The notes under the pieces: generated by a model
Databases searched by the model: none
Seen by the model: only the letters and a program-made list of their open reading frames with translations
What the model was told of the DNA's origin: nothing
Position numbers and translations under genes: made by a program
In this document: piece by piece, positions 11,559 through 43,447 of the stretch
How the letters are laid out: every line of letters starts with the position of its first letter
How positions within the stretch are numbered: position 1 is the stretch's first letter
Origin: Spirochaetota bacterium
Lineage (GTDB): Bacteria > Spirochaetota > UBA4802 > UBA5550
Assembly: GCA_024276015.1 (NCBI GenBank)
Contig: JAJRXZ010000004.1
Span: 20,216 to 84,215 of the forward strand
DNA: 64,000 bases
Reading direction: 5' to 3'

Positions 11559-11609
11559 ATTTATAATCATTTTTAGTTGAAAAAAAATAGCTATTAAAAT
11601 ATGTTGAAT

Positions 11610-11658
11610 TATACCGATCGTTATTGAGAATTTCCATATTAAATGAATCGGTATATGA
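11610..11658 (+). repeat. conserved upstream element, copy A (module 1 only)
   Basis: TATACCGATCGTTATTGAGAATTTCCATATTAAATGAATCGGTATATGA is identical over 49 nt to 14688-14736. 9-bp inverted arms TATACCGAT/ATCGGTATA. It ends 19 nt before the ATG at 11678. Confidence 0.9.
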
Positions 11659-11677
11659 CAATAATTAAAGAGGAATT

Positions 11678-14441: not shown

Positions 14442-14687
14442 TTTTGCCGAACCTGCTCTATATAATTTTTATGTAAAAACCAATATATTTAAAAAATATG
14501 TTTGCCAAATAATATTTATATTAAATTTATGTTAATTGCATAGGATATTATAAAAAAAATATTGCTATTTCCACTGTTTTTTTCAGATTGACTTATAGGA
14601 TGAATAGAATGGAGAAGTTTACGCCTGTAGAGAAATAATTTTACAGCAAATATCTATGGATGAGACTTCCTTCTGTTTTGATTGGAC

Positions 14688-14790
14688 TATACCGATCGTT
14701 ATTGAGAATTTCCATATTAAATGAATCGGTATATGATTTAAGCAGGATTTTGCCCTTTGCCAAGGGATAAAATATAGGCTTTTTGATATA
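14688..14790 (+). repeat. conserved upstream element, copy B (modules 1+2+3)
   Basis: Module 1 is identical to copy A. It is followed by CAGGATTTTGCCCTTTGCCAAGGGATAAAAT (hairpin) and GGCTTTTTGATATA. It ends 37 nt before the ATG at 14828. Confidence 0.9.
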
Positions 14791-14827
14791 AATTACTATA
14801 ATAAATTTAATAAAAAGAAGTAAAATT

Positions 14828-15970
14828 ATGTGCCGATTAGCTTTAAAAACATCATCAACACCATTTTCACCTTACAGCGTTCTGGAAGCCATGGAAGCAA
14901 TGCAGGAAGGGTATGACGGAAGCGGACTTGGTCTTCTTCTGCGCGGTCTTGAATTTTTAGATTATAATTATCAGACCAAAGACCCTATTTTCTCAGGCAT
15001 TGCCCATACCCATGAAGCTTTAAACCGCCTTGATTCATTTATGCAGGAGAAGGGGTTTACTTTAAAGTATGATCATGAGTTCAATGTTGATCATTCAAAG
15101 GTGGAAGCCCCTGACAGATATAAATATCTTCTCCGTATATACAATTTTCCTGAAATATGGAAAGATTATGATAAAGACAGGATCGAACATGAATTAATGA
15201 TGACCCGCCTTGAATTAAGAAGGGATGGAGAGAATCATAATGGAGACCTTACGCTTTTTTCTTTCTGGCCCGAGGTTGTTATTATTAAAGAGGTTGGCTG
15301 GCCTCTGGGCATTGGGGATTCCCTTGGTCTGTCTGATAACAGAATAAAGGCAAGACTGGTAATGGCTCAGGGCAGGCAAAATACAAACTGGGGCATTAAT
15401 CTGTATGCATGCCATCCCTTTTTCCTTCAGGGTGTTTCCACAATGACAAATGGTGAAAATACAGCCTTTATTCCTATTAAAGAATGGCTTATGGGCGTGC
15501 AATTTCCCGGTTATATAGGCTACCAGAGCGACAGTGAAGTATTTACGCATATTTTACATTATACTATTAAAAAGCTGAAACTCCCGCTCGAAGTTTATAA
15601 ACACATTATCACTCCGCTGAAAACAGAGGAGCTGTTAGATCATCCTCAGGGAGATTTTCTAAGAGGCTTGCGGGATGTAACCAGAAAGCTGATCATTGAC
15701 GGGCCCAATTGTGTTATAGGGTCTTTACAAGATGAAACATGTTTCATGGTAATGGACCACAAGAAATTACGTCCCGGTACAGTGGGCGGAAAAGAAGGCG
15801 AATGGGCAATGGCTTCCGAGATGTGCGGCGTTGACGCAATGATTCCCGAAAGGGACCGTTCCCTCGATTTTCAGCCAATGCGAGAGAACATGGTAATAAT
15901 ATCCCCAGACCGAAAGGAGTATAAGATATGGTCACAATTCGATCCATACCCTCAACACCGGGTAGCCTGA
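14828..15970 (+). CDS. glutamate synthase, class-II glutamine amidotransferase subunit (archaeal-type GltB domain 1)
   Basis: Begins MCRLA, with the Cys2 nucleophile of Ntn amidotransferases. It heads an operon with the FMN and GXGXG subunits. Confidence 0.75.
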   Translation: MCRLALKTSSTPFSPYSVLEAMEAMQEGYDGSGLGLLLRGLEFLDYNYQTKDPIFSGIAHTHEALNRLDSFMQEKGFTLKYDHEFNVDHSKVEAPDRYKYLLRIYNFPEIWKDYDKDRIEHELMMTRLELRRDGENHNGDLTLFSFWPEVVIIKEVGWPLGIGDSLGLSDNRIKARLVMAQGRQNTNWGINLYACHPFFLQGVSTMTNGENTAFIPIKEWLMGVQFPGYIGYQSDSEVFTHILHYTIKKLKLPLEVYKHIITPLKTEELLDHPQGDFLRGLRDVTRKLIIDGPNCVIGSLQDETCFMVMDHKKLRPGTVGGKEGEWAMASEMCGVDAMIPERDRSLDFQPMRENMVIISPDRKEYKIWSQFDPYPQHRVA

Positions 15971-17565
15971 CATACACTGATCTTCCATGGATAATCAATC
16001 ATATTGAAGATAGATGCACACTGTGCGGGAAATGCACTTCGGTTTGCCCCACTTCCGCAATATATCTCGGTTACAGACGACAGAGAATCCCGCAGATCGA
16101 TATTTATAATAAAGACAGAAAAACATCCTACAGAACATTTGCGGGCATAAGGCAGAGGCTTGACGTAGAGCACAGATGCATCGGGTGCGGTATGTGTTCC
16201 ATGGTTTGCCCCAATGAGGCAATAACTCCTGTCTTAAACTCAAATGACGACAGGCTCAAGTTTCATATACATCAGGGCGGCGATGCGTGGAAACGAGGCG
16301 GGAGAAGAAATAGCAGGGAATCTTTGCTGGACAATATTATTTTTACGAGGATCTCAATGCTTACAGACCCGGCGCTTGATGCCGGCAGGCATGAATTCTA
16401 TCTAAACACAATTCTGGGACGAATTCTCTCTCCTGAGGAATATCTGAAGAGGAAGGAAAAGGGCCAATGGATACCCCCCACAAGGGAGATTTTCCCCTTT
16501 ATTATAGGCTCTATGTCATTCGGCGCAATGTCTCCCAATATGTGGCTTGGCCTTCTGCAGGGCGTTGCATACTGCAACGAGGTGCTTGGCATTCCCGTTG
16601 TTATGGCAACGGGCGAGGGAGGGTGTCCCCCGTGGGTTTTAAAAAGCCCCTTCCTTAAGTATATTATACTGCAGATCGCATCAGGTTATTTCGGATGGGA
16701 CGAGATAATCAGGGCTATTCCCGATATGCAGTGCGACCCTGCGGCAATTGAAATAAAGTACGGGCAGGGCGCAAAACCGGGCGACGGCGGACTTTTAATG
16801 TGGTATAAGGTGAGTAAACTCATTGCCCGTCTCAGGGGCGTTCCGCAATCCGTTGATCTGCCTTCGCCTCCGGTACATCAGACGCTCTATTCCATAGAGG
16901 AGAGTGTTATGAAAATGATCCAGTCTCTGTCAATGGCATGGGGGTTCAGAGTGCCTGTATATCCCAAAATATCCGGTTCCAATTCTGCAAAATCGGTACT
17001 TAATAATCTTGTCAGAAATCCCTATGCTTCGGCTCTGTTGATAGACGGAGTAGACGGAGGAACCGGAGCAGCCTATAATGTAAGTATGGATGCAATGGGT
17101 TATCCCATAGCTTCAAATCTCAGAGAGTGTTATCTTGATCTTGCTGCTCAGGGAAAACAGAATGAGATCCCCCTCTTTGCCGCAGGCGGAGTGGGCAAGA
17201 ACGGAAATGTAACGCAAAACGGTATGGCTCTGATCATGCTTGGCGCAAGCGGCGTTCATATCGGCAAATATGTGATGCAGTCTATAGCAGGCTGCCTTGG
17301 AAGTGAAAGGAACAGATGCAATGTATGCAACTTGGGCATTTGCCCCAAAGGTATAACGAGCCAAAATCCGAAGCTCTACAGACGTCTTGATCCGGATCAG
17401 GTAGCTCAGAGAGTAGTCGATGTCTTCCAGGCAATCAGAACGGAGATGAAGAAGATCATGGCGCCGCTTGGAAGGTCTCAGAGTCTTCCTATCGGTATGA
17501 GCGATGCTATTGGGATAAACGATAAGGCAGCGGCGGATAAGTTGAAAATAAATTATATATGTTAA
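15928..17565 (+). CDS. glutamate synthase FMN/2-oxoglutarate subunit (GltB domain 2) with an N-terminal 2x[4Fe-4S] ferredoxin domain
   Basis: CTLCGKCTSVCP and CIGCGMCSMVCP, then the GltS FMN-domain pattern (IKYGQGAKPGDGG, LLIDGVDGGTGAA). RBS GGAG before the ATG at 15928. It overlaps the previous gene by 43 nt. Confidence 0.85.
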   Translation: MVTIRSIPSTPGSLTYTDLPWIINHIEDRCTLCGKCTSVCPTSAIYLGYRRQRIPQIDIYNKDRKTSYRTFAGIRQRLDVEHRCIGCGMCSMVCPNEAITPVLNSNDDRLKFHIHQGGDAWKRGGRRNSRESLLDNIIFTRISMLTDPALDAGRHEFYLNTILGRILSPEEYLKRKEKGQWIPPTREIFPFIIGSMSFGAMSPNMWLGLLQGVAYCNEVLGIPVVMATGEGGCPPWVLKSPFLKYIILQIASGYFGWDEIIRAIPDMQCDPAAIEIKYGQGAKPGDGGLLMWYKVSKLIARLRGVPQSVDLPSPPVHQTLYSIEESVMKMIQSLSMAWGFRVPVYPKISGSNSAKSVLNNLVRNPYASALLIDGVDGGTGAAYNVSMDAMGYPIASNLRECYLDLAAQGKQNEIPLFAAGGVGKNGNVTQNGMALIMLGASGVHIGKYVMQSIAGCLGSERNRCNVCNLGICPKGITSQNPKLYRRLDPDQVAQRVVDVFQAIRTEMKKIMAPLGRSQSLPIGMSDAIGINDKAAADKLKINYIC

Positions 17566-17619
17566 GATGTTTCAGTATGCTGTTTGATAAAAGGGTTTAT
17601 AAAGAGAGGAGACAGATAA

Positions 17620-19953
17620 GTGAAGGGCATAACCGAAGATTATATAACAATTAAAGGGGTTGATGACAAGGGCAAACGTATCAGTTCCAAAGATTATGAA
17701 GATATGGTGCAGGATGCCTTGAAGAGATCCAACAGGCTGATACTCTGGACCAAGGGGCAGCACAATGTTGGCGGACGTCTCAGGCATGAATCGGGCTCTG
17801 TTTTTATAAGAGTGAAAGGTCCTGTGGGCCAGCGGCTGGGATGTATGGGCCAGCCCGGCACAACAATTATCTGTGAAGGGCAGGCCTCCGACGATGTGGG
17901 ATATCTCAATATCGGAGCGGATATTGTTATTCTTGGAGATGCAACCAACGGAGTTTGTAATGCTACTGCCCAGGGCAGGGTGATGGTGCGCGGTTCAATC
18001 GGTTCCAGAGGCCTCACAATGACTAAGTGGAATCCCGATTATAAAAGGCCCGAACTATGGGTTCTCGGTTCCGTAGGGGATACCTTTGCAGAATTCAACT
18101 GCGGTGGAATTGCCGTTGTGTGCGGAATTAACCCGAAAAATCCGGATAATATTCTGGGATACCGCCCCTGCGTTGGAATGGTAGGCGGAACAATATTCTA
18201 CCGCGGAAAAACCGACAATACATACTCCGGAAATGATGTACGCCTTTCAGAACCGAATGACGAGCAGTGGCAGTGGCTTGTTTCACAGATGCCCCAATAT
18301 CTTGAAACCATTGAACGAAGCGATCTTTTAGAGGAGTTAACGGTTCGTGAAGAGTGGAAAGTTCTTGAAGCCATTCCCCCTCAGGAAAAATCACTGAGGC
18401 GCAGCGGGACCATGACCATTGAGGAGTTCAGGATAAAAGTATGGGAGAAGGCTTTCGGAGGCGACCCGCTTCGTGATCTTGCGCCGGGACTTGACCGTGA
18501 ACCTATCGGTTTAATTGAATCGGGCGATTTAAGGCGGAAAGTGCCCTTCTGGGCAAACAGGCAGTCTGCTGCGCCCTGTACATATTATTGTCCTGCGCAT
18601 ATACCCACTGTTGATCGTCTCAGACTTATCAGAGAGGGCAAGCTGGACCAAGCTTACCGGCTGACCCTGAATCATACTCCTTTCCCTGCATCGGTTTGCG
18701 GTTCCATCTGCCCCAATCTCTGTATGTCCAACTGTTCGAGACAGCGTGTTGACAAAAGCATTGATATTGCCCTTCTGGGGCGTTCTGTTCAGAATGCAGA
18801 GGCTCCTGAACTTAAGCCGCCCACCGGTAAAAAGGCGGCAATTGTGGGCGGAGGACCTGCAGGCTTAAGCGCTGCATGGCAGCTTGCTCTTGCAGGAGTT
18901 GAAGCTCATATCTTTGAGAAGGATAATAAGCTGGGCGGAAAAATGGCGCAGGTCATTCCCTGGGAAAGGCTGCCAAGGGCTGTCTGGGATGCAGAGCTTG
19001 AAAGATTATTGAAATTACCCGGTATTCATGTTAATTACGGCGTGAATATGACAAAGGATAAAATAGAAGAGTTAAAAAATAATTTTGATTATGTGATTGT
19101 CGCGGTTGGGGCGCATGAACCTCGCAGGATCCCCTTCCCCGGTTCGGAGAGGGTAATTGCAGGCCTTGATTTCCTGAAGTCTGCCAAATCTGACAATCCC
19201 ATGAAAGTTGGTAAAAAGGTAGTTGTTATAGGAGCCGGTAATGTGGGATGCGATGTTGCCTGTGAGGCATACCGCCTTGGAGCGGATGATGTAACATTGA
19301 TTGATATACAGAAACCTCTTTCCTTCGGCAAGGAGAGAGAAGCGGCAGAGAGGCTTGGAGCCAAATTCCGCTGGCCCGCTGTGACTAAAGAAGTAACGGA
19401 TGAAGGGGTACTCCTTGCCGACGGCGGTTTTATCCCGGCTGATACGGTGATAATTTCTATAGGAGATGTTCCGGCTCTCGATTTTCTGCCGGAGACTGTT
19501 GAAACAATAAAAGGATTGATTAAAACCGGCGAGGCGGGAAACACATCGGATAGTAAGATCCTTGCAATAGGCGATGTGGAAAAACCGGGGCTTGTAACCG
19601 ACGCTCTCGGCAGCGGTAAAAGAGCCGCCGAGTATGTTATAAGTTCATTAAACGGCAGAGAGTGGAAATCATTTAAGATCCCTGTAATTCAGCAGAGCGC
19701 TTTAACTGTTGAGCATTACTGCCCCGATAATAATACGCTGTCTGAGGACGGCGAGGCAGACAGGTGTCTCAGCTGCGGTTCATGCCGCGACTGCGGTTTG
19801 TGTGTTGACATCTGTCCCACTGCTGCAATAAGCAGGATCGACCTAAGTGACGGGCAGTATGAATATAGATCGGATGATGACAAATGTATCGCCTGCGGAT
19901 TCTGTTCGGATACATGCCCCTGCGGTATCTGGATCATGCAGGAGTTCGAATAG
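17620..19953 (+). CDS. fusion of the glutamate synthase GXGXG domain (GltB domain 3), a GltD-like NAD(P)H oxidoreductase and a C-terminal 2x[4Fe-4S] ferredoxin
   Basis: GTG start after GAGGAG. GXGXG beta-helix repeats (GQRLGCMGQPGTTIICEGQASDDVGYL...). GltD-type Cys cluster (VCGSICPNLCMSNCSR), dinucleotide fold AIVGGGPAGLSAA, and CLSCGSCRDCGLC / CIACGFCSDTCP. Confidence 0.85.
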   Translation: MKGITEDYITIKGVDDKGKRISSKDYEDMVQDALKRSNRLILWTKGQHNVGGRLRHESGSVFIRVKGPVGQRLGCMGQPGTTIICEGQASDDVGYLNIGADIVILGDATNGVCNATAQGRVMVRGSIGSRGLTMTKWNPDYKRPELWVLGSVGDTFAEFNCGGIAVVCGINPKNPDNILGYRPCVGMVGGTIFYRGKTDNTYSGNDVRLSEPNDEQWQWLVSQMPQYLETIERSDLLEELTVREEWKVLEAIPPQEKSLRRSGTMTIEEFRIKVWEKAFGGDPLRDLAPGLDREPIGLIESGDLRRKVPFWANRQSAAPCTYYCPAHIPTVDRLRLIREGKLDQAYRLTLNHTPFPASVCGSICPNLCMSNCSRQRVDKSIDIALLGRSVQNAEAPELKPPTGKKAAIVGGGPAGLSAAWQLALAGVEAHIFEKDNKLGGKMAQVIPWERLPRAVWDAELERLLKLPGIHVNYGVNMTKDKIEELKNNFDYVIVAVGAHEPRRIPFPGSERVIAGLDFLKSAKSDNPMKVGKKVVVIGAGNVGCDVACEAYRLGADDVTLIDIQKPLSFGKEREAAERLGAKFRWPAVTKEVTDEGVLLADGGFIPADTVIISIGDVPALDFLPETVETIKGLIKTGEAGNTSDSKILAIGDVEKPGLVTDALGSGKRAAEYVISSLNGREWKSFKIPVIQQSALTVEHYCPDNNTLSEDGEADRCLSCGSCRDCGLCVDICPTAAISRIDLSDGQYEYRSDDDKCIACGFCSDTCPCGIWIMQEFE

Positions 19954-29962: not shown

Positions 29963-31003
29963 CTACATTCCTATATCGGCAAATGTTCCCATACGGTTCA
30001 TCATTTCAGTTGCAGCTTCAACAATGTTAAAGGCAAGCGCACAGCCAGTGCCTTCTCCCAGCCGCATATTCATTTTCAGCATTGGTTCAATGCCCAGTAT
30101 TTTCATAATTATTTTAGCGCCCGGTTCTTCACTGACATGAGATCCCATCATAAAGAATTTTGCTTTGGGGTTGATCTTTACTGCCGCAACTGCGGCAGCT
30201 CCGGAAATAAACCCGTCAATTACTATGGGTACTCTTCGCGCCGCTGCTGCAAGGAAACATCCCGTAAGGCCCGCAATGTCAAATCCTCCCACTTTGGACA
30301 GAACGTCAATTGCATTGTCAGGGTCCGGCTTATTTATCTTGACTGCGGTTTTTACAATCTCTTTTTTGCGTTCAAGCCCCTCGTCGTCAAGGCCTGCGCC
30401 CCTTCCGGTCAGTTTGTCCGGATTTTCGCCTGTAAAAGCGTGAAGCACAGCACTGCTGGTTGTTGTGTTTCCGATCCCAACTTCGCCGGTTCCAAGAAGG
30501 TTAACTCCGCTATCTATTGCTTTTTCAGTAATTTCAATTCCTGTTTCTATTGCCTGCACAGCCTCGTCCGCTGTCATGGCAGGTCCTTTTGCTATGTTTG
30601 ACGTTCCATATCTGATTTTTTTATTAATTATTCCCGCTATGGCAATGTCCTTATCAAGGCCCATATCAACAACTACCAGTTCTGAACCGGCATGTCTGGC
30701 AAGAACGGCAACTCCCGATATTCCCGTTGCCATTGTTTGGGCTACCAGATAACTTACGTCTTTAGGGAAAGAACTGATATTCTCCTCAACAACTCCGTTA
30801 TCGGCGCACATCGCGATAATTGCTTTTTTATGGACTCTGTTGAATATTTCACCTGTAATTCCTGAAAGCTGTTTTGCAATTGATTCCAGTTTCCCAAGAC
30901 TGCCGGGAGGTTTCAGCAGATTGTTCAGCCTCTCCTGCGCTTTATCCATAACATCCTCATGTAATGAGCCTATTGATTCGATTGTTTTGTTTAGCTTGTC
31001 CAT
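29963..31003 (-). CDS. cobT: nicotinate-nucleotide--dimethylbenzimidazole phosphoribosyltransferase
   Basis: LLKPPGSLGKLE and GEVGIGNTTTSSA motifs. Confidence 0.92.
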   Translation of the reverse strand: MDKLNKTIESIGSLHEDVMDKAQERLNNLLKPPGSLGKLESIAKQLSGITGEIFNRVHKKAIIAMCADNGVVEENISSFPKDVSYLVAQTMATGISGVAVLARHAGSELVVVDMGLDKDIAIAGIINKKIRYGTSNIAKGPAMTADEAVQAIETGIEITEKAIDSGVNLLGTGEVGIGNTTTSSAVLHAFTGENPDKLTGRGAGLDDEGLERKKEIVKTAVKINKPDPDNAIDVLSKVGGFDIAGLTGCFLAAAARRVPIVIDGFISGAAAVAAVKINPKAKFFMMGSHVSEEPGAKIIMKILGIEPMLKMNMRLGEGTGCALAFNIVEAATEMMNRMGTFADIGM

Positions 31004-31017
31004 AATCTCTCCAGTAA

Positions 31018-31602
31018 TTATTTTTCATTTAATGTTTTTAAATATGTATAATCTCTGCTGAAGCAGAGGCGGGCTATTGTTCCGTTATCGATCTGAAAGC
31101 GCCATGATTTCTCAATAGATTCGAGTAAATAGTATCCGAGAATCGTTCTGATGCAGCCTCCGTGAGAGACAACTGCTATTCTGTTATAGCGGCTTTCAAG
31201 AATGGTATCGATCTCGGCAATAACTTTTCTGCTCATATCGTAAAAGCTCTCGCCTTCGGTAATTTTAAAATTTATCCAGTCCTTTCTCCAATCTTTAAAT
31301 TCCGGGCCGTAGCTTTCTCTGATCTCCTCCCAGGTCAGGCCTTCCCAGCGTCCGAAATTCATCTCCCTTAAATTTTTTGTATGATAAATCTCCTGACCGA
31401 AGTTGATGATTTCAGCAGTTTCTCTGCATCTGAGAAGATCGCTGGAAATTACATAGTCTATTTCTTCGCCTTCCAGTTTGTTCTTTAAATTAAGAGCCTG
31501 ATTTCTCCCTTCATTGTTAAGGCCGATGTCCCTTATGCCGAGGAATCTCCCGTGTCTGTTGTAGTCGGTTTCGCCGTGCCTGATCAATAGCAGTTCCTTC
31601 AT
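31018..31602 (-). CDS. cobC: alpha-ribazole phosphatase (histidine phosphatase family)
   Basis: LIRHGETDYN catalytic motif, a later SHGG, and operon context. Confidence 0.8.
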   Translation of the reverse strand: MKELLLIRHGETDYNRHGRFLGIRDIGLNNEGRNQALNLKNKLEGEEIDYVISSDLLRCRETAEIINFGQEIYHTKNLREMNFGRWEGLTWEEIRESYGPEFKDWRKDWINFKITEGESFYDMSRKVIAEIDTILESRYNRIAVVSHGGCIRTILGYYLLESIEKSWRFQIDNGTIARLCFSRDYTYLKTLNEK

Positions 31603-31603
31603 G

Positions 31604-32359
31604 TTATGATCCCCTCATCGGTTTTATTAAATGTGCTGAAAGGAGAAAGACAATTTCTGACATTTCAATAACAGCGCCGAGAATATCTCCTGTTGTTCCG
31701 CCTATTTTTTTCTTTACGTAAGTTGTGAATAAGAGAGTGAAAATGATTGCAGGGATAATTAAAAGAGGCCCCCTAATTCCCAGCATGGCAGTACCTGCTG
31801 CCGCTGTAAGGGCAGTGGATATTATTATTTCTCTGATCCCGGTATTGTTTATATAGGCAGTGCCAAGGCCTTTTTTCTTACCTGCATAGCTGGAAATGCC
31901 GGAACTCCAGGAGATACTCATTCGTGATACCGCAGGCATTAAAATTATTATATATAAATTTGAACTAATATTGAGGGACATTATAAGCATTGTTTTTGCT
32001 AAAATCGTTAAAATGAGCGCCAGCGTTCCGTTTGTGCCTATTCTTGAGTCTTTCATAATTTTTAAAATTTCGTCTGCCGGCCTGTTGCTGGGGATTCCGT
32101 CAAATGTATCTGCAAGGCCGTCCATGTGGAGACCCCCGCTGATCAAAATTTCGGCAATTACCACTGAGAGAGCGGAAAGAGCGCCTGCGCCCGTTTTATT
32201 GAACAGAAGAAAAATTACGCATAACATAACTCCGATGATAAAACCGATTACCGGCGCAAAAATAATCCCCTTTGCAAAATGGGTGTCGTCAAATTCTATT
32301 TTGACCGGTACCGGGATCCTTGTGAAGAACTGCAGCTGTAACAGAAAGCTTCTTATCAT
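31604..32359 (-). CDS. cobS: adenosylcobinamide-GDP ribazoletransferase (cobalamin synthase)
   Basis: Polytopic membrane protein. LQFFTRIPV N-terminus and HMDGLADTFDG motif. Confidence 0.9.
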   Translation of the reverse strand: MIRSFLLQLQFFTRIPVPVKIEFDDTHFAKGIIFAPVIGFIIGVMLCVIFLLFNKTGAGALSALSVVIAEILISGGLHMDGLADTFDGIPSNRPADEILKIMKDSRIGTNGTLALILTILAKTMLIMSLNISSNLYIIILMPAVSRMSISWSSGISSYAGKKKGLGTAYINNTGIREIIISTALTAAAGTAMLGIRGPLLIIPAIIFTLLFTTYVKKKIGGTTGDILGAVIEMSEIVFLLSAHLIKPMRGS

Positions 32360-32377
32360 GTAATTCGCTCCTTTGGT

Positions 32378-32938
32378 TTACCCTTTGATCTTTACCGGAA
32401 TACCGGAAATCATCAGATAAACTTCGTCGGCGCTTTGCGCAACCGTCTGGTTGGACCTGCCTGCAACATCTCTGAAGTATCTGCCCAGCGGTGCTGCAGG
32501 AACAATGCTCATGCCCACTTCATTGGAAACAATTATAGTTTTCCCTTTAAACTTTTTTGCAGATATAATGATATTCTGTATTTCCGATTCTATTATTTTT
32601 TCGGTTTTTTTTGCGGATTCGGAATTTATGTTTTCCTCTTCCATGCCATTCTCAATGATCATGAGGTTTGAGATCATAATGGTTAAGCAGTCTAATAAAA
32701 TATAACCTGTATTTTCATCAGCCTTCGAGATAATAGAAGCGATGTTTTTGTAGGACTCAAATGTCTGCCAGTTACTGTTTCTTCTTGATCTGTGTATTTT
32801 TATTCTCTCTTTCATCTCTTCGTCAAAGGGTATGGCAGTTGCAATATATACGACATTATCATGCGCATTTAACATACTTTCGGCAAAGGTGCTTTTCCCG
32901 CTTCTTGCTCCGCCTGTAATGAATACTATTTTGCCCAT
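32378..32938 (-). CDS. cobU: adenosylcobinamide kinase / adenosylcobinamide-phosphate guanylyltransferase
   Basis: P-loop FITGGARSGKS and YIATA...H motifs. First gene after the B12 riboswitch. Confidence 0.9.
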   Translation of the reverse strand: MGKIVFITGGARSGKSTFAESMLNAHDNVVYIATAIPFDEEMKERIKIHRSRRNSNWQTFESYKNIASIISKADENTGYILLDCLTIMISNLMIIENGMEEENINSESAKKTEKIIESEIQNIIISAKKFKGKTIIVSNEVGMSIVPAAPLGRYFRDVAGRSNQTVAQSADEVYLMISGIPVKIKG

Positions 32939-33014: not shown

Positions 33015-33072
33015 CCCTTTTTTATCTCCGAAACAAATCCCTTCCCCTTTACACGACGGGGCAGGGCTCAAT

Positions 33073-33240
33073 GTACAGGCAGGTCTTCTGGCTTACGGAT
33101 CACTCTACTTGCTGCGCCTTCCCATAAGACTTGATAATGACTTACAGTGGCATTCTGCAGCGTTCGTTCCCGATTACAGCGGCGGGCCCGCACCCGAATT
33201 TCACGGGTTTCACTTTTAATCCCATAATGGGAACCTGTAC
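33073..33240 (-). promoter_or_regulatory. cobalamin (B12) riboswitch aptamer
   Basis: The minus strand reads GTACAGGTTCCC...GGGATTAAAAGTGAAACCCGTGAAATTCGGGTGCGGGCCCGCCGCTGTAA...GTAAGCCAGAAGACCTGCCTGTAC. P1 is GTACAGG/CCTGTAC and the B12 box is AGCCAGAAGACCTGCC. Confidence 0.92.
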
Positions 33241-33445
33241 ACTATATTACACAGTTATCTGAACATGTGATTTATATCTCTCAATTGTCAATAAAAAATA
33301 TATTTATTTTATGATGTTCCGGTTTCAATGAGAGGGTAGTAGAAGGAATTTGTTCTTTAAAATAATAAAAGAAACTACGTATTAATGCTTATTTACTTGA
33401 TAATAAGAATTATGTAAATTATAATTGCTGTAATATTCAGGTCAT

Positions 33446-33549
33446 TATACCGATCATAATTGAAGATATTATATTAAATGAATCGGTATATGATCTGATC
33501 AGGATTTTACCCTTTGCAAAGGGACAAAATCGATATTTTTTGATATATA
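33446..33549 (+). repeat. conserved upstream element, copy C (modules 1+2+3)
   Basis: TATACCGAT-N27-ATCGGTATATGAT, then CAGGATTTTACCCTTTGCAAAGGGACAAAATCGATATTTTTTGATATAT. It ends 63 nt before the ATG at 33613. Confidence 0.88.
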
Positions 33550-33612
33550 TATGATAAAAGGGATTGATAAATCTAATTGGGTGAAAAATCGGATTTTTGT
33601 CAGGAGTCATTT

Positions 33613-36600
33613 ATGTTAGAGCACCTATCTCCTTATTCCAGACCGCCCCTCTTCATAATGATGTTTCTGTTCTTTGCTTTTCCCAAATGCAGTGATCTGA
33701 GGGATTACCCCGATACGCAAATATCCGAATGTTCCGCTTCCCAGTGCCATCCATCAACGCTGTTAAAGCAGTACCCTCCGGCAAGCGGTAAACATACCCG
33801 GCACTTAAACAGAGGCTTAATATGTGAGAATTGCCATAATGATTATCTCAACAGACCTCAACACAAGAATGGGAAACTGGATCTTTCCGGAGATACAGTT
33901 ATTGTATATTTTGATAAACTGAACGGTTCCACAATATGGGACAATTCATCGGACGCCTGTTCTAATATTGACTGTCACGGCGGAGCTCCTTCTTCCATAA
34001 GCTGGTATGGCGATACAGCCGGTTGTACCGAATGTCATACTGGGGGGAGTACAATTGATCCTGTATCAACCAATGGCGAAAAGGAGAGCGGCAAGCATAT
34101 ATCTCATGTGCAAGATCAGAATATATCATGCAATTCGTGCCATAACGATTATATGTCGAATGCCATGCATATTAATGGAATATACGGCAGGGCCGAAAAG
34201 AACCCTGTTGTTATTTTTGATGCATCCAATCCTTGGGCTCAATGGGATAATGAAAATACTTCATGCAGTCTTATGGATTGCCACGGCACGCTTGACTGGT
34301 ATTCCACAGGATCATATTCGTGCCTGTCATGTCACGCGCCCGGAACGACCTATGATCCCTTAACTATCAATGGTTCCGGGAATTCGGGAAAGCACATAAA
34401 ACATGCAGGCAGCCTCAATTATGATTGTGAAAAATGTCATAAGAATTACGGAGATGCCCCTGAACACAGGAACGGCCTTCTGGATACGGGTGATCCCTCT
34501 GTTATGATGACCTTTTTCGATTCAACAAATCCTGCAGGGCAGTGGATTGGCGATACAGGAGAGGGTAAGGGCATGTGTTCTTCTCTTGCATGCCATGGGA
34601 CATCAGTTCCGGAATGGTACGGGACCGCTTCATGGTCTCTGCCCTCATGTGATACGTGCCACGCTTCTGTAATAAACTCAAGGAGGCAGATTCTTGGAAC
34701 AGGCGGAGATTTTGGGGCTAATCCCGGAATAAAGTCTCATCATATTACCGGCAGTGCAGATCCTTCTGATGAGCAGTGCAAAGTATGCCATGATCTTTCT
34801 TCCCATATGGGCGGAACCGTTATCCTTAATAATGCCGATGACGGTACAGGTATTGTATATGATCCTTCAATTCCTTCAACGCTTGAGGATTTTTGTTTAA
34901 GCTGTCACGATCCAAACGGCGCATCTGTGACTTTTGCATCTGTCGGATCACCGCTGGATCCTTTCGGCGAAAAATCAGGATCGGATCTGCTGGGCATCCC
35001 CCCTTATTCCTATGCAGCAAGGATCAGCGCAAGCTGGCAAAAAAAATACGGCCACGGATCAACTAATACCGATCCTGCGGATTTTCAGAATGTAAATGTA
35101 AAAATGAGAACAACCGGGAGCAGGCTTACATGTATGGGCAGCGGCGCGCCAGGTACCGGATGCCATGGAAGTAACGGAAATATCAATGCTCACGGATCGG
35201 TAAATGAGGTTATTTCAGCGGCACAGTTTGATTATTCGGCAATGTCTCAGATCTATGACGAGTCATGGTTTTCACTCTGTTTTAACTGCCATTCTTCTTA
35301 TCCCGGCGTTACAAAAGAGGATATTCTCGGCGTAAAAGAAGACGGAATTCTCGATATGAGATACGGCAATATGAAAAGCAGGCCCGGAGATGCCAATAAG
35401 GAATTTAATCCTCCTTATTATATTTCACGCGTTGTAACTCACTTTGCAGATCACAATGCAGGGTCGATTTATCTTGGAGGAATGCCTCAGGGCATAATTA
35501 ATGCAGGCGGTTATATATGGGTGGGATTGACCTATGACGATAAAGTATTAAAATTAGATAAATCCACAGGAGAGATATTAGCGGTAATAGCGGCTGATTC
35601 AAGTCCCGGTGTGGTGAACGGCTTTGCCTATGACAGTGACAATAATTATGTATGGGTTACAAATCAGGGCAGCAGCAGCATCGTCACTAAAATAAAAGCG
35701 GATGATAACAGTGTTACAAATGTTGCAATAGCTCAATCCGGGCAGTATAGCATTATATATGCCAATGCCTCAATATGGCTTACTGCAAACGGCAGGCTTC
35801 TGCAGTTAGATCCCGCAACAAACAGTACTTTAAACACTTATGATTTTTCGCCGAAAAGTCTCATGGGTATGGCTTACGACGGACAGTATATCTGGCTGGC
35901 CAGCGGCAATGAGGTCATGAAAATAGATCCTCTCGACGGATTAACTGTTAATACTGTTTCGGTTGGATCGAGTCCTTATTCCGTAAGATACTATGACGGA
36001 TATATATGGGTTGCAAACACAGGAGGCGGATCTATCACAAAAATTGATCCCTCATCCGATTCCGTGCTGGCTGATATTTATGCGGGCGATCATCCCATAG
36101 ATATGACCTATGACGGCCAGTATTTATGGGTAGCTCTCAACAGTTATAACGGCGTGTCCAAAATTGATATTTCTTCCGATACGGTGATTGACACATATCA
36201 GATGAACGGCAGATCTCTTGGTGTTGCTTATGACAACTCAGGACATATTATGACAACCGATATTGACAATTATTCTTTAACAAAACTGAATATATCGACC
36301 GGTCTGATGGATGGCGACGCTTACGGGATCAATGATTCGCCTGTGCATCTGACAGCTACTAAAAACAGTATGAACCTTCACTGGTACCACATGAGGTTTT
36401 ATACGAATTTCAGAGGCAACGAGATCCCTGCTCCTGATACGGGTGCGGGTGAATATTTCAAAAGAGGAGAACTTTGCGATAATTGCCACAGAATATTTGA
36501 ATTCGGCAAAAACTTATCCTGCGTTAACTGCCACGATGTACACGGCTCCGATAATCCGAACGGTGCGGTTTACGACGAGATCGGATATGCGAGAGTGGAC

Positions 36601-36765
36601 GGCTTCTGGGGGTCTTACGGGAAGCTGCCGGATCTGATCCCCGATCTTGATCAGTATCCCGCATATTGCGCATATAACTGCCACAATGCGGATCAGTATC
36701 TCCATCAAGACAAGATGGATTTAAAACCGCCTAACAAGGCATGGTTTGATCCTATTACCGAGTGA
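33613..36765 (+). CDS. multihaem c-type cytochrome family protein (11 CXXCH plus 4 CxxxxCH) with an embedded YVTN/NHL-like beta-propeller
   Basis: I chose the ATG at 33613 because it follows AGGAG. Hydrophobic N-terminus. Motifs: CENCH, CTECH, CNSCH, CLSCH, CEKCH, CDTCH, CKVCH, CLSCH, CFNCH, then about 6 repeats of the ...YIWVAN.GGGSITKIDP... type, then CDNCH and CVNCH. Confidence 0.8.
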   Translation: MLEHLSPYSRPPLFIMMFLFFAFPKCSDLRDYPDTQISECSASQCHPSTLLKQYPPASGKHTRHLNRGLICENCHNDYLNRPQHKNGKLDLSGDTVIVYFDKLNGSTIWDNSSDACSNIDCHGGAPSSISWYGDTAGCTECHTGGSTIDPVSTNGEKESGKHISHVQDQNISCNSCHNDYMSNAMHINGIYGRAEKNPVVIFDASNPWAQWDNENTSCSLMDCHGTLDWYSTGSYSCLSCHAPGTTYDPLTINGSGNSGKHIKHAGSLNYDCEKCHKNYGDAPEHRNGLLDTGDPSVMMTFFDSTNPAGQWIGDTGEGKGMCSSLACHGTSVPEWYGTASWSLPSCDTCHASVINSRRQILGTGGDFGANPGIKSHHITGSADPSDEQCKVCHDLSSHMGGTVILNNADDGTGIVYDPSIPSTLEDFCLSCHDPNGASVTFASVGSPLDPFGEKSGSDLLGIPPYSYAARISASWQKKYGHGSTNTDPADFQNVNVKMRTTGSRLTCMGSGAPGTGCHGSNGNINAHGSVNEVISAAQFDYSAMSQIYDESWFSLCFNCHSSYPGVTKEDILGVKEDGILDMRYGNMKSRPGDANKEFNPPYYISRVVTHFADHNAGSIYLGGMPQGIINAGGYIWVGLTYDDKVLKLDKSTGEILAVIAADSSPGVVNGFAYDSDNNYVWVTNQGSSSIVTKIKADDNSVTNVAIAQSGQYSIIYANASIWLTANGRLLQLDPATNSTLNTYDFSPKSLMGMAYDGQYIWLASGNEVMKIDPLDGLTVNTVSVGSSPYSVRYYDGYIWVANTGGGSITKIDPSSDSVLADIYAGDHPIDMTYDGQYLWVALNSYNGVSKIDISSDTVIDTYQMNGRSLGVAYDNSGHIMTTDIDNYSLTKLNISTGLMDGDAYGINDSPVHLTATKNSMNLHWYHMRFYTNFRGNEIPAPDTGAGEYFKRGELCDNCHRIFEFGKNLSCVNCHDVHGSDNPNGAVYDEIGYARVDGFWGSYGKLPDLIPDLDQYPAYCAYNCHNADQYLHQDKMDLKPPNKAWFDPITE

Positions 36766-37810
36766 CGAACCTTCTTGTTGCTTCTTCTATTTCAGCGGTT
36801 TTATTCTTAACCATCCGGATCAGAAGGTCTTTCACTTTGACTCTCTCCTTGTGATTTCTGTCCAGTTTCTGTTCCAAGTCCTCAAGAATTTTTTTCAAAT
36901 TTCCGGAAGCCATGAGCTTTTTTCGCAAAAGAAAGGATTTGCTTTTATTATACTGCTGTGTTTCGTATGTAAGGTAAGCATTATACTGGCTTACAATGCA
37001 GAGTATATCCTTATAAAATCCGCTCAGCTTGTTAAAGAATCCTGAGAACGCTTTAACCAGATCTTTTTCGTTCTTAACGTCGGAATAAGTTCCTCCTGAC
37101 GAAGAAGCGATCTGTGACAATTGCCTTCTTGTTCTTCTGTCAACTCCAAGGCCTATGACAAAAACATCGGGATTTATAAGGCTTACTTTCAGGTCAATAA
37201 TTGCTTTTACAGGATTCCCTCCGCAGCTCTCCATTCCGTCGCTTATCAGGATGAGTGTGTTATTTTCATTTTCAATTCCTTTGAAGTATTCGTATGATCT
37301 GTTAAGGGTCATTGCAATGGGCGTAAGCCCTCCGGGTCTAATTGCGTCGATTTTACTATTGATTCTGCTTCTGTTGGATTTTCCTATAGGTGCAATTAAT
37401 TCGATGCTGTCCTCTCCGCAGGATGCTTTTCCATAAAGGACGAATCCGAGTCTGATAGATTGAGGCAGGGAGTCTATATATTTTTTCAGGATTTTTTTTG
37501 CAAGTCCCATTCTTGTGCCGCTTCCCAGCGCGGTTTTCATGCTTCCGGAACCGTCGAGGATCAATAAAATATTGTGCGGTTTTGCAAGCTTCAGCAAATC
37601 TGTTTTTATCATGCCGCACTTTCCGCCTCTGTTGCTTTTGACAAGAGCTTCGTTTAATCTGTGGTTATATCCGGTCCGGATCTCAAGGTCGTCAGGAAAA
37701 CCGTCATGGTCAATATCTCTGGTGAATGGAAGGTCTTTGCTGTGAGCTGCTTGGCAGAAAAATATTAACGCTATAACAAAAGTAAGTTTTAGATTTTTTC
37801 TATTTTTCAT
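36755..37810 (-). CDS. secreted von Willebrand factor type A (vWA) domain protein with a coiled-coil tail
   Basis: ATG at 37810 after GGAGG. Signal peptide. DIDHDGFPDD Ca-binding-like motif. MIDAS motif LILDGSGSM with a later SDGMES. Confidence 0.8.
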   Translation of the reverse strand: MKNRKNLKLTFVIALIFFCQAAHSKDLPFTRDIDHDGFPDDLEIRTGYNHRLNEALVKSNRGGKCGMIKTDLLKLAKPHNILLILDGSGSMKTALGSGTRMGLAKKILKKYIDSLPQSIRLGFVLYGKASCGEDSIELIAPIGKSNRSRINSKIDAIRPGGLTPIAMTLNRSYEYFKGIENENNTLILISDGMESCGGNPVKAIIDLKVSLINPDVFVIGLGVDRRTRRQLSQIASSSGGTYSDVKNEKDLVKAFSGFFNKLSGFYKDILCIVSQYNAYLTYETQQYNKSKSFLLRKKLMASGNLKKILEDLEQKLDRNHKERVKVKDLLIRMVKNKTAEIEEATRRFVTR

Positions 37811-38099
37811 AATTGCTCCTCCAATTAACAATTTTAACAATTGCGTTTATTTATTATAACATATAAAAAAATATATCCGGCACTAAAAAAGAAAATAGAT
37901 CTATATTTTTATTCAAAGATAATATTTAAGAATATTTTATTCAATTAAATTTTAAATTAGTATGCATTATTTAAAACAATAAAAAAGAATTGAAAAATTA
38001 AACAATTTGAGAAATGTGGATTATTAAGATAGAAAGTCATATACTTCCTGTCAAATGTGCCCGAGATCCGGTACAATCATTTTATTTCTTTTATTCAAT

Positions 38100-43222: not shown

Positions 43223-43294
43223 TTTACCGGTTCTCTATGTTCTGTTTGGGCATATTTCCTTGACTTATATTGAAGAGAATAATTATAAATATAT

Positions 43295-43400
43295 TATACC
43301 GATCATCATTGAAAATTTCCATATTAAACGAATCGGTATATAATTTGATCAGGATTTTGCCCTTTGCAGAAGGACAAAATCGATGCTTTTCGATATATAT
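43295..43400 (+). repeat. conserved upstream element, copy D (modules 1+2+3)
   Basis: TATACCGAT-N28-ATCGGTATATAAT, then CAGGATTTTGCCCTTTGCAGAAGGACAAAATCGATGCTTTTCGATATATAT. It ends 47 nt before the ATG at 43448. Confidence 0.88.
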
Positions 43401-43447
43401 TGAACCGTCTTTCTTTAATAACCGACACTTTACGAATGAGGTAAGTA

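Follow-up and report, generated by a model that had tools for sequence, protein, structure and literature searches.

What does a multihaem cytochrome do with a beta-propeller set into the middle of its own chain? The question is raised by a gene on the forward strand of a 64,000-nucleotide stretch of contig JAJRXZ010000004.1 from a Spirochaetota bacterium; the whole of this 64-kb stretch is referred to below as the window, and the product of the gene as the window protein. What is new at this locus is a recognisable, uncharacterised family of porin-cytochrome outer cytochromes with an acquired internal YVTN propeller, a form that is rare and conserved across phyla. Our preferred reading, to which we assign a probability of about 0.6, is that the window protein is an electron-transfer wire with a built-in docking module, probably lipid-anchored: a conduit-family cytochrome carrying an inserted propeller.

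The long open reading frame (ORF) in the region occupies 33577..36765 on the + strand and encodes 1062 amino acids (aa) when counted from its TTG start; all residue positions given here follow that numbering. The likelier start is the ATG at 33613, giving 1050 aa plus stop, with the in-frame TTG at 33577 adding a further 12 aa. The 1050-aa product is 100% identical to a public protein derived from NCBI (P0001). The gene and its domains are laid out as follows.

33602..33606, + strand: Shine-Dalgarno-like AGGAG, 6 nt before the ATG at 33613, read off the sequence
33613..36765, + strand: coding sequence of the cytochrome-propeller protein (1050 aa plus stop)
33613..33690, + strand: putative signal peptide ending in a loose lipobox, FAFPK-C, read from the sequence, with a Cys predicted to be lipidated
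33730..34647, + strand: three tandem repeats of about 100 aa (residues 52-357) with nine haem motifs, five CXXCH and four CX4CH
34648..35469, + strand: conserved core (residues 358-631) with CXXCH at 358, 401, 440 and 568 and C-X9-CH at 519-530
35470..36321, + strand: inserted seven-bladed YVTN beta-propeller (residues 632-915), blades starting at 632, 677, 718, 757, 795, 835 and 876
36322..36762, + strand: C-terminal haem module (residues 916-1062) with NLHWYH, CDNCH at 967, CVNCHDVHGS at 982 and CAYNCH at 1031

A first-pass annotation of this DNA, made from the letters alone, had described a secreted multihaem c-type cytochrome of roughly 1050 aa. The length agrees with that of the ATG-start protein and of P0001, and the description is supported by conserved haem motifs, by matches above cut-off to three cytochrome models (Cytochrome_C7, Cytochrom_c3_2 and TIGR01904) and by a hydrophobic N-terminal stretch followed by Cys. 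By eye, a Cys at this position recurs in most full-length homologues (e.g. AAGC, ATGC, FLNC, LSRC), and AAGC or ATGC, the canonical lipobox, is frequent among them. The window protein is thus predicted to be Sec-exported and is probably lipid-anchored at the Cys of FAFPK-C.

The ORF contains 11 CXXCH motifs (83, 150, 185, 249, 284, 358, 401, 440, 568, 967 and 982), four CX4CH motifs (52, 128, 230 and 334) and a single CX3CH, CAYNCH, at 1031. In addition a C-X9-CH sequence (CMGSGAPGTGCH; residues 519-530, window positions 35131-35166) is invariant in all 39 sequences of an alignment, A2, made up of the window protein and 38 homologues. One possibility is a non-canonical site for a seventeenth haem, the other a disulphide loop; a conserved CX8C disulphide occurs in cytochromes of the MtrC type. 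The predicted number of haem sites is accordingly 16, or 17 if C-X9-CH also binds haem, and the 36 Cys and 41 His residues of the protein would suffice for bis-His ligation of them all. Both motif counts in the first-pass annotation (11 CXXCH and four CxxxxCH) were right, but the total of 15 haems was too low since the CX3CH and C-X9-CH sequences had been overlooked. Within A2 the haem motifs are kept in between 27 of 27 and 39 of 39 aligned sequences, excepting the first CX4CH and the extra CDNCH at 967, and the His of every CXXCH is conserved. This degree of conservation rules out chance occurrence and, together with the cytochrome model matches, makes untenable the zinc-ribbon reading that the first-pass annotation had raised against itself. 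No other ORF of the window holds more than one CXXCH.

Matches to Pfam were obtained for Cytochrome_C7 (44.3 bits against a cut-off of 24.8) and Cytochrom_c3_2 (32.2 bits against 25). The NCBIfam model TIGR01904, for the Geobacter CxxxxCH/CxxCH domain, scored 27.6 bits against a cut-off of 27, a narrow margin for a match that is repeated over three stretches. Each N-terminal repeat contains an SGKHxxH block, a CXXCH and a CX4CH and is a domain of this Geobacter type; these are the three internal repeats noticed previously, and the units of about 100 aa are evident in the sequence. The resemblance to the doubled CXXCH family (PF09699/TIGR01905) proposed at the same time did not hold, with scores of 10.2 bits against 20.6 in Pfam and 13.4 against 25.2 in NCBIfam over one short stretch (981-995), and it is TIGR01904 that fits instead. 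The core that follows is marked by the blocks RRQxxGxGGDF and PPYY..THFADHN. In the C-terminal module CVNCHDVHGS at 982 is conserved in the family, and CDNCH at 967, lying 15 residues ahead of it, aligns in only five of the 39 members of A2, including all three aligned propeller-bearing members; it is also present in the L001 protein described below. The haem domains were modelled poorly by AlphaFold2 (predicted local distance difference test score, pLDDT, mostly 30-80), as expected without haem.

The stretch between core and C-terminal module is built of seven repeats about 40 aa in length; a G(Y/Q)(Y)IWV strand and an xxK(I)D strand recur in every one. An AlphaFold2 model built on A2 folds them into seven four-stranded blades with a pLDDT of 78-97, mostly above 88 and about 90 overall. 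The segment matches Protein Data Bank (PDB) entry 1l0q by sequence (phmmer, E 1.3e-12), and the same entry is the top Foldseek match to the model (E 2.7e-16, root-mean-square deviation 2.1 A over 284 columns), followed by YncE and the leptospiral protein Lp49. 1l0q is a surface-layer protein of Methanosarcina mazei which likewise has seven blades of about 40 aa and is the best match in both sequence and fold; unlike the window protein it is an archaeal surface-layer module followed by a PKD domain, has no haem domain, and is only 21% identical. The YVTN model TIGR02276 scored 26.6 bits, slightly under its cut-off of 27.85. No hit to the NHL repeat PF01436 was obtained in the window protein at E <= 1, whereas a positive control, the neighbour of P0044 discussed below, scored 1e-15. 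The propeller was described in the first-pass annotation as YVTN/NHL-like, of which only the YVTN part stands; its account of a repeat region of about 300 aa after the ninth CXXCH, with two further CXXCH beyond, corresponds to residues 632-915 followed by the motifs at 967 and 982.

The position of the propeller within the cytochrome is clear from A2. In 36 of the 39 sequences the place of the propeller is taken by a short, variable linker of a few tens of residues, and the segment spanning the PPYY..THFADHN and NLHWxH blocks measures 59-101 aa; in P0002, P0003 and the window protein it measures 382-391 aa, which amounts to an insert of about 310 aa. This contrast in length indicates that the propeller was inserted into a variable loop and not appended, as had been surmised when it was first described as embedded in the cytochrome. 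On the evidence of the alignment, the core haem domain and the C-terminal haem module have been parted by a genuine insertion, the seven-bladed YVTN propeller.

To what family does the cytochrome itself belong? A search of one genome per species returned 80 family loci, chiefly from Nitrospirota and Spirochaetota, with further loci in some Thermodesulfovibrionales and Acidiferrobacterales and matches to the core only in Sideroxydans, Thiodiazotropha and Anaerolineales. Most homologues are about 730-745 aa long and carry 14-15 haem motifs. Gene order was counted for the 45 best-matching loci of the 80 (Nitrospirota, Spirochaetota and Gammaproteobacteria), and in 31 of them a porin-like gene is followed by a 7-haem cytochrome gene and then immediately by the family member. 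The partner cytochrome is of about 190 aa with seven haem motifs. The porin-like protein, of about 470 aa, has a signal peptide and a C-terminal ...MRYDF; nothing in Pfam matches it, and it has the look of an outer-membrane beta-barrel. Most of the 31 loci add a divergent 9-haem cytochrome, with four doubled-CXXCH units, and a DUF4149 membrane protein. The full five-gene arrangement was noted at L003 (6577-12211) and about 30 other loci (e.g. L007, L009, L016 and L017) from Nitrospirota, some Spirochaetota and Acidiferrobacterales: divergent genes for DUF4149 and the 9-haem cytochrome, then the porin-like protein, the 7-haem cytochrome and the 14-15-haem lipoprotein cytochrome. No description of this five-gene cluster by name was found in the literature searched.

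The order porin, 7-haem cytochrome, family member in these relatives identifies the family, by gene context and sequence, as the lipoprotein outer cytochrome of a porin-cytochrome conduit, and this is what the ordinary, propeller-less members of about 740 aa are predicted to be. The window protein is 38-48% identical, over shared regions, to proteins within such clusters. The extracellular electron-transfer role suggested in the first-pass annotation therefore has support of an indirect kind, from propeller-less relatives in porin-cytochrome clusters, and we infer the function of the window protein itself from these. The clustered form is present in the Spirochaetota metagenome-assembled genomes (MAGs) L021, L024, L025, L026 and L036, so that conduit-type cytochromes are present in uncultivated members of this phylum, to the evidence for which these related loci add. 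We found no Pfam or NCBIfam model specific to the family, and no paper among those searched that describes it or any cytochrome interrupted by a propeller. The family is noteworthy in its own right for its members with at least 15 haems and for the invariant C-X9-CH.

Two known conduit types resemble this arrangement. As in Geobacter-type porin-cytochrome (Pcc) systems of the OmbB-OmaB-OmcB kind, the relatives of the window protein show the order porin-like protein, small periplasmic multihaem cytochrome, large lipoprotein multihaem cytochrome, which we take to be the ombB-omaB-omcB order of Geobacter. The window protein shares with the outer cytochromes of those systems a lipobox, a high haem count and an N-terminal domain of the Geobacter CxxxxCH/CxxCH type; it differs in having no porin or periplasmic partner gene nearby and in its inserted propeller, and the likeness to OmcB is one of layout and not of sequence comparison. 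The Geobacter Pcc clusters, OmbB-OmaB-OmcB, are those of Shi et al. (2014; PMC4245776), as cited in PMC13264449. With the decahaem surface cytochromes MtrC, OmcA and MtrF of Shewanella the family shares lipoprotein character, association with porins and the pentahaem domain PF22113 (MtrC/MtrF domains II/IV), matched by 33 of the 39 family members at E <= 0.001 (best E 3.7e-15). Unlike those proteins, the window protein falls below the PF22113 cut-off, lacks the MtrC-type beta-barrel domains I/III and has more haems.

The propeller-bearing form is rare. When residues 360-1062 were searched in full with HMMER against 1.84 billion representatives (50%-identity clusters standing for about 15 billion proteins), only four proteins matched in a single stretch through core, propeller and C-terminus (P0002, P0003, P0044 and P0045), and no further protein combining haem motifs with a propeller was present among the best 150 matches. 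The architecture is thus known from five proteins, these four and the window protein. P0045 comes from L001, a single-cell genome of Spirochaetota with 39% GC, and a tblastn search of the 80 family loci with the inserted propeller (E 1e-5) matched only L001, unrelated propellers such as NHL being undetectable in this way. P0044, of 1021 aa, lies on contigs of 70% GC (L082/L083) and has a differing N-terminus that is not a lipoprotein signal. Directly upstream of it is a translationally coupled gene for a six-bladed NHL propeller, to which close kinship of the inserted propeller was not found (best local E 0.02). At both P0044 loci (L082 3217-7301 and L083 1339-5423) proteins with CBM_4_9, RCC1 and PPC domains are encoded nearby.

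Among the propeller-bearing proteins the module of core, propeller and C-terminus is 46-60% identical over 700 aa, in genomes of about 40% and about 70% GC. Such identity across very different genomes argues for selection on the combined unit, and we take it to argue also that propeller and haem chain work together physically. Flanking sequence long enough for a judgement exists for three propeller variants (those of the window, L001/L084 and L082/L083); near none of them was a porin or partner cytochrome found, and P0004 in L002, the closest spirochaete relative without a propeller, is an orphan too. In a neighbour-joining tree of the core (212 columns) the propeller-bearing proteins group with propeller-less P0004 and P0006, with weak resolution; the internal branches are too short to tell a single insertion followed by loss from an origin that is strictly monophyletic.

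These data suggest how the window protein might work as an electron-transfer wire with its own docking module. It would be exported by Sec and lipidated at the Cys of FAFPK-C, and its 16-17 haems would be loaded by a maturation system encoded elsewhere; Ccm or Ccs genes were found neither in the window nor in the related loci retrieved, and the WWD motif of CcmC, CcmF or CcsA is absent from every frame of the 64 kb. Closely spaced haems would hand electrons along the protein. An extra CXXCH goes with the propeller inserted into the variable loop. The rigid propeller would most likely offer a docking surface holding the terminal haems against a partner, whether mineral, polymer, another cytochrome or a protein of the cell envelope.

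Several observations weigh against this reading. The family from which it is argued has no characterised member, and a family profile found no solved structure among PDB sequences, giving only weak NrfA-like hits (E 0.007). On the window protein PF22113 scores 20.5-20.6 bits, over the conserved core, under its gathering cut-off of 30. Lys at position -1 makes the lipobox non-canonical, yet the position of the Cys recurs in the family. The low pLDDT of the haem domains means that the placement of the propeller relative to the haems is not fixed by the model. Finally, 40 larger ORFs of the window, among them genes for housekeeping, signalling and acyl-CoA metabolism, were scanned against Pfam, and none proved to be a gene for a cytochrome, a porin or haem maturation. 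A tblastn search with the partner proteins gave no match in the window, which has no other multi-CXXCH ORF, and the outcome was the same for L001/L084 and L082/L083. This agrees with the earlier remark that maturation, porin and partner cytochrome genes are missing nearby. With no porin or partner genes in the window or beside the two other variants, a trans-outer-membrane route for the window protein is unsupported, and the protein may face the periplasm.

Propellers recur beside multihaem cytochromes in extracellular electron transfer clusters, in a role that is not understood, and the window protein joins both in one chain. Separately encoded examples are the beta-propeller lipoproteins DFE_0451, DFE_0452 and DFE_0463 in the cytochrome clusters of Desulfovibrio ferrophilus (PMC8322314), the UetH/UetI beta-propellers of Tenderia and Gallionella electron-transfer clusters (10.1101/2022.05.06.490989, PMC9900912) and Gmet_0556, an NHL-type propeller in another cytochrome cluster (PMC9900912, 10.1101/2022.05.06.490989, PMC8322314). 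Such propellers have been proposed to stabilise complexes or to mediate adhesion (PMC8322314, 10.1101/2022.05.06.490989, PMC9900912). All have in common with the window protein a six- or seven-bladed propeller tied to multihaem cytochromes, and P0044 has its own coupled upstream NHL gene. The propeller of the window protein differs in being of YVTN type, in having no NHL match and in lying within the cytochrome polypeptide, where it would do in cis what the separate lipoproteins may do in other clusters.

More tentatively, and with the odds in our judgement against it, we propose that the module of core, propeller and C-terminus may act as a self-contained 'dock-and-wire' unit, in which the propeller would recognise a specific insoluble or polymeric partner, or an envelope protein, and set it beside the terminal haems, allowing electron exchange without a co-encoded porin conduit. 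Were this so, an otherwise fermentative spirochaete would exchange electrons without a dedicated conduit of that kind, and the natural fusion would reveal the long-unexplained role of the separate beta-propeller lipoproteins. The fusion is also a tractable construct for finding what the propeller binds.

A different possibility is that the protein is a periplasmic redox enzyme in which the propeller is catalytic or substrate-binding and the haems feed it with electrons, along the lines of cytochrome cd1 nitrite reductase, hydrazine synthase, the quinohaemoprotein dehydrogenases or the propeller of nitrous oxide (N2O) reductase. Fusion of a haem c domain to a propeller is a known enzyme design, and cd1 nitrite reductase and hydrazine synthase, like the window protein, combine c-type haem domains and a beta-propeller in one chain. 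In those enzymes the domains follow one another in tandem and the propeller houses a cofactor or the active site; that of the window protein is an internal insert without conserved ligand residues or a match to their models. Across four aligned propeller-bearing sequences it contains no invariant His or Cys, so that a cofactor there is unlikely, and no conserved cluster of acidic residues, the conserved positions being those of the structural YVTN signature. There was no Cytochrom_D1 hit, and the models for pyrroloquinoline quinone (PQQ) enzymes and NosZ came nowhere near their cut-offs: the weak NCBIfam match of the propeller to lactonase-type NosZ (E 1.2e-5), which might be cited in favour of an enzyme, reached 24 bits against 700. 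The position of the gene outside a porin cluster and the extra haem motif at 967 accompanying the insertion would also suit an enzyme. We nevertheless regard it as unlikely, the best structural relatives (the surface-layer YVTN domain, YncE and Lp49) being non-enzymatic. It is the lack of invariant His and Cys, taken with closest structural relatives that are non-enzymatic surface modules, that points instead to the propeller as a docking platform.

Those same relatives could be read another way, with the protein being first an adhesin or envelope scaffold whose propeller attaches to surfaces, polymers or cells and whose haems are secondary, a capacitor or redox sensor and not a respiratory conduit. 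Propellers of the YVTN type are typical of surface-layer and other surface proteins (1l0q and Lp49, with giant multi-propeller proteins among the representative hits), the P0044 locus is ringed by surface-type proteins with the domains listed above, and the window gene stands alone. We consider this improbable too: the haem motifs and cytochrome core are strongly conserved across phyla, at the identities given above, which argues that electron transfer is under selection, and relatives of the protein are embedded in conduit clusters. An assembly chimera, a pseudogene or a set of zinc ribbons might be suspected in a metagenome-derived contig, but this is very improbable for an intact reading frame with a Shine-Dalgarno sequence and signal peptide, conserved His in every CXXCH, matches to cytochrome models in Pfam and TIGRFAM, and the same architecture in five independent assemblies, one of them a single-cell genome, in which the identity across very different genomes likewise speaks against an artefact.

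The first-pass annotation had also drawn attention to a conserved element upstream of the gene. This is a genuine repeat, present in the window as the following copies.

33444..33550, + strand: repeat copy C, about 107 nt, with a 9-bp inverted repeat (TATACCGAT...ATCGGTATA) and then a 14-nt palindrome, CCCTTTGCAAAGGG
43293-43401 and 14687-14794, + strand: other full copies, with 82-87% identity between copies
11608-11659, + strand: partial copy of the same element
33397..33425, + strand: promoter-like site (TTGATA, 17 nt, TATAAT; 11 of 12 consensus matches) just 5' of repeat copy C

Every copy lies 20-63 nt ahead of the start codon of a + strand gene. The genes concerned are functionally unrelated (the cytochrome, a methyl-accepting chemotaxis protein, an unknown 380-aa protein and a DUF1015 protein), so the element is not specific to the cytochrome. 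The location of the promoter-like site just 5' of the repeat suggests that it may be transcribed as the leader of the cytochrome gene, and copy C is probably in the 5' leader; promoter-like sites in the region are no commoner than in shuffled sequence. No Rfam family was found for the repeat and no copies in the related loci, and a metagenome scan for the hairpin stems gave four chance matches without other similarity. A stable RNA structure was considered and rejected, with a fold z-score of -1.5 that is no better than shuffled sequence, as was a sigma-54 promoter, for which the GG/GC spacing is wrong by eye. The element is a dispersed repeat specific to this lineage, not one that belongs to the cytochrome gene as such, and may serve as a promoter or leader cassette or else be a small mobile repeat.

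The genes on either side of the cytochrome gene are as follows.

33061-33253, - strand: cobalamin riboswitch RF00174 (118 bits, full length), heading the divergent operon and lying in the same intergenic region as the cytochrome leader
36755-37840, - strand: VWA-domain protein of 361 aa, convergent downstream, its 3' end overlapping the cytochrome gene by 11 nt

A convergent secreted VWA protein had been named as the sole neighbour; it is there as described, but it is not the only one, since a divergent cobalamin-salvage operon (ORFs 29963-32938, - strand) lies upstream. Judged from the translations, the operon appears to consist of cobalamin salvage genes of the cobU/cobS/cobC/cobT type. The VWA protein has a hydrophobic N-terminus containing a Cys (ALIFFC) and may be a lipoprotein. 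VWA genes (BatA/BatB) occur also in the Tenderia Uet cytochrome cluster (10.1101/2022.05.06.490989). In both other long contexts of propeller variants this neighbour is missing, so that nothing ties the VWA protein of the window to the cytochrome.

The GroEL encoded in the window is 81-85% identical to GroEL of uncultured Spirochaetota MAGs. At 15928-19953 (+ strand) two adjacent ORFs have a GC content of 48%, against a window average of 40%, and encode a glutamate-synthase-like protein with 4Fe-4S domains and a GXGXG/pyridine-nucleotide-disulphide oxidoreductase fusion protein.

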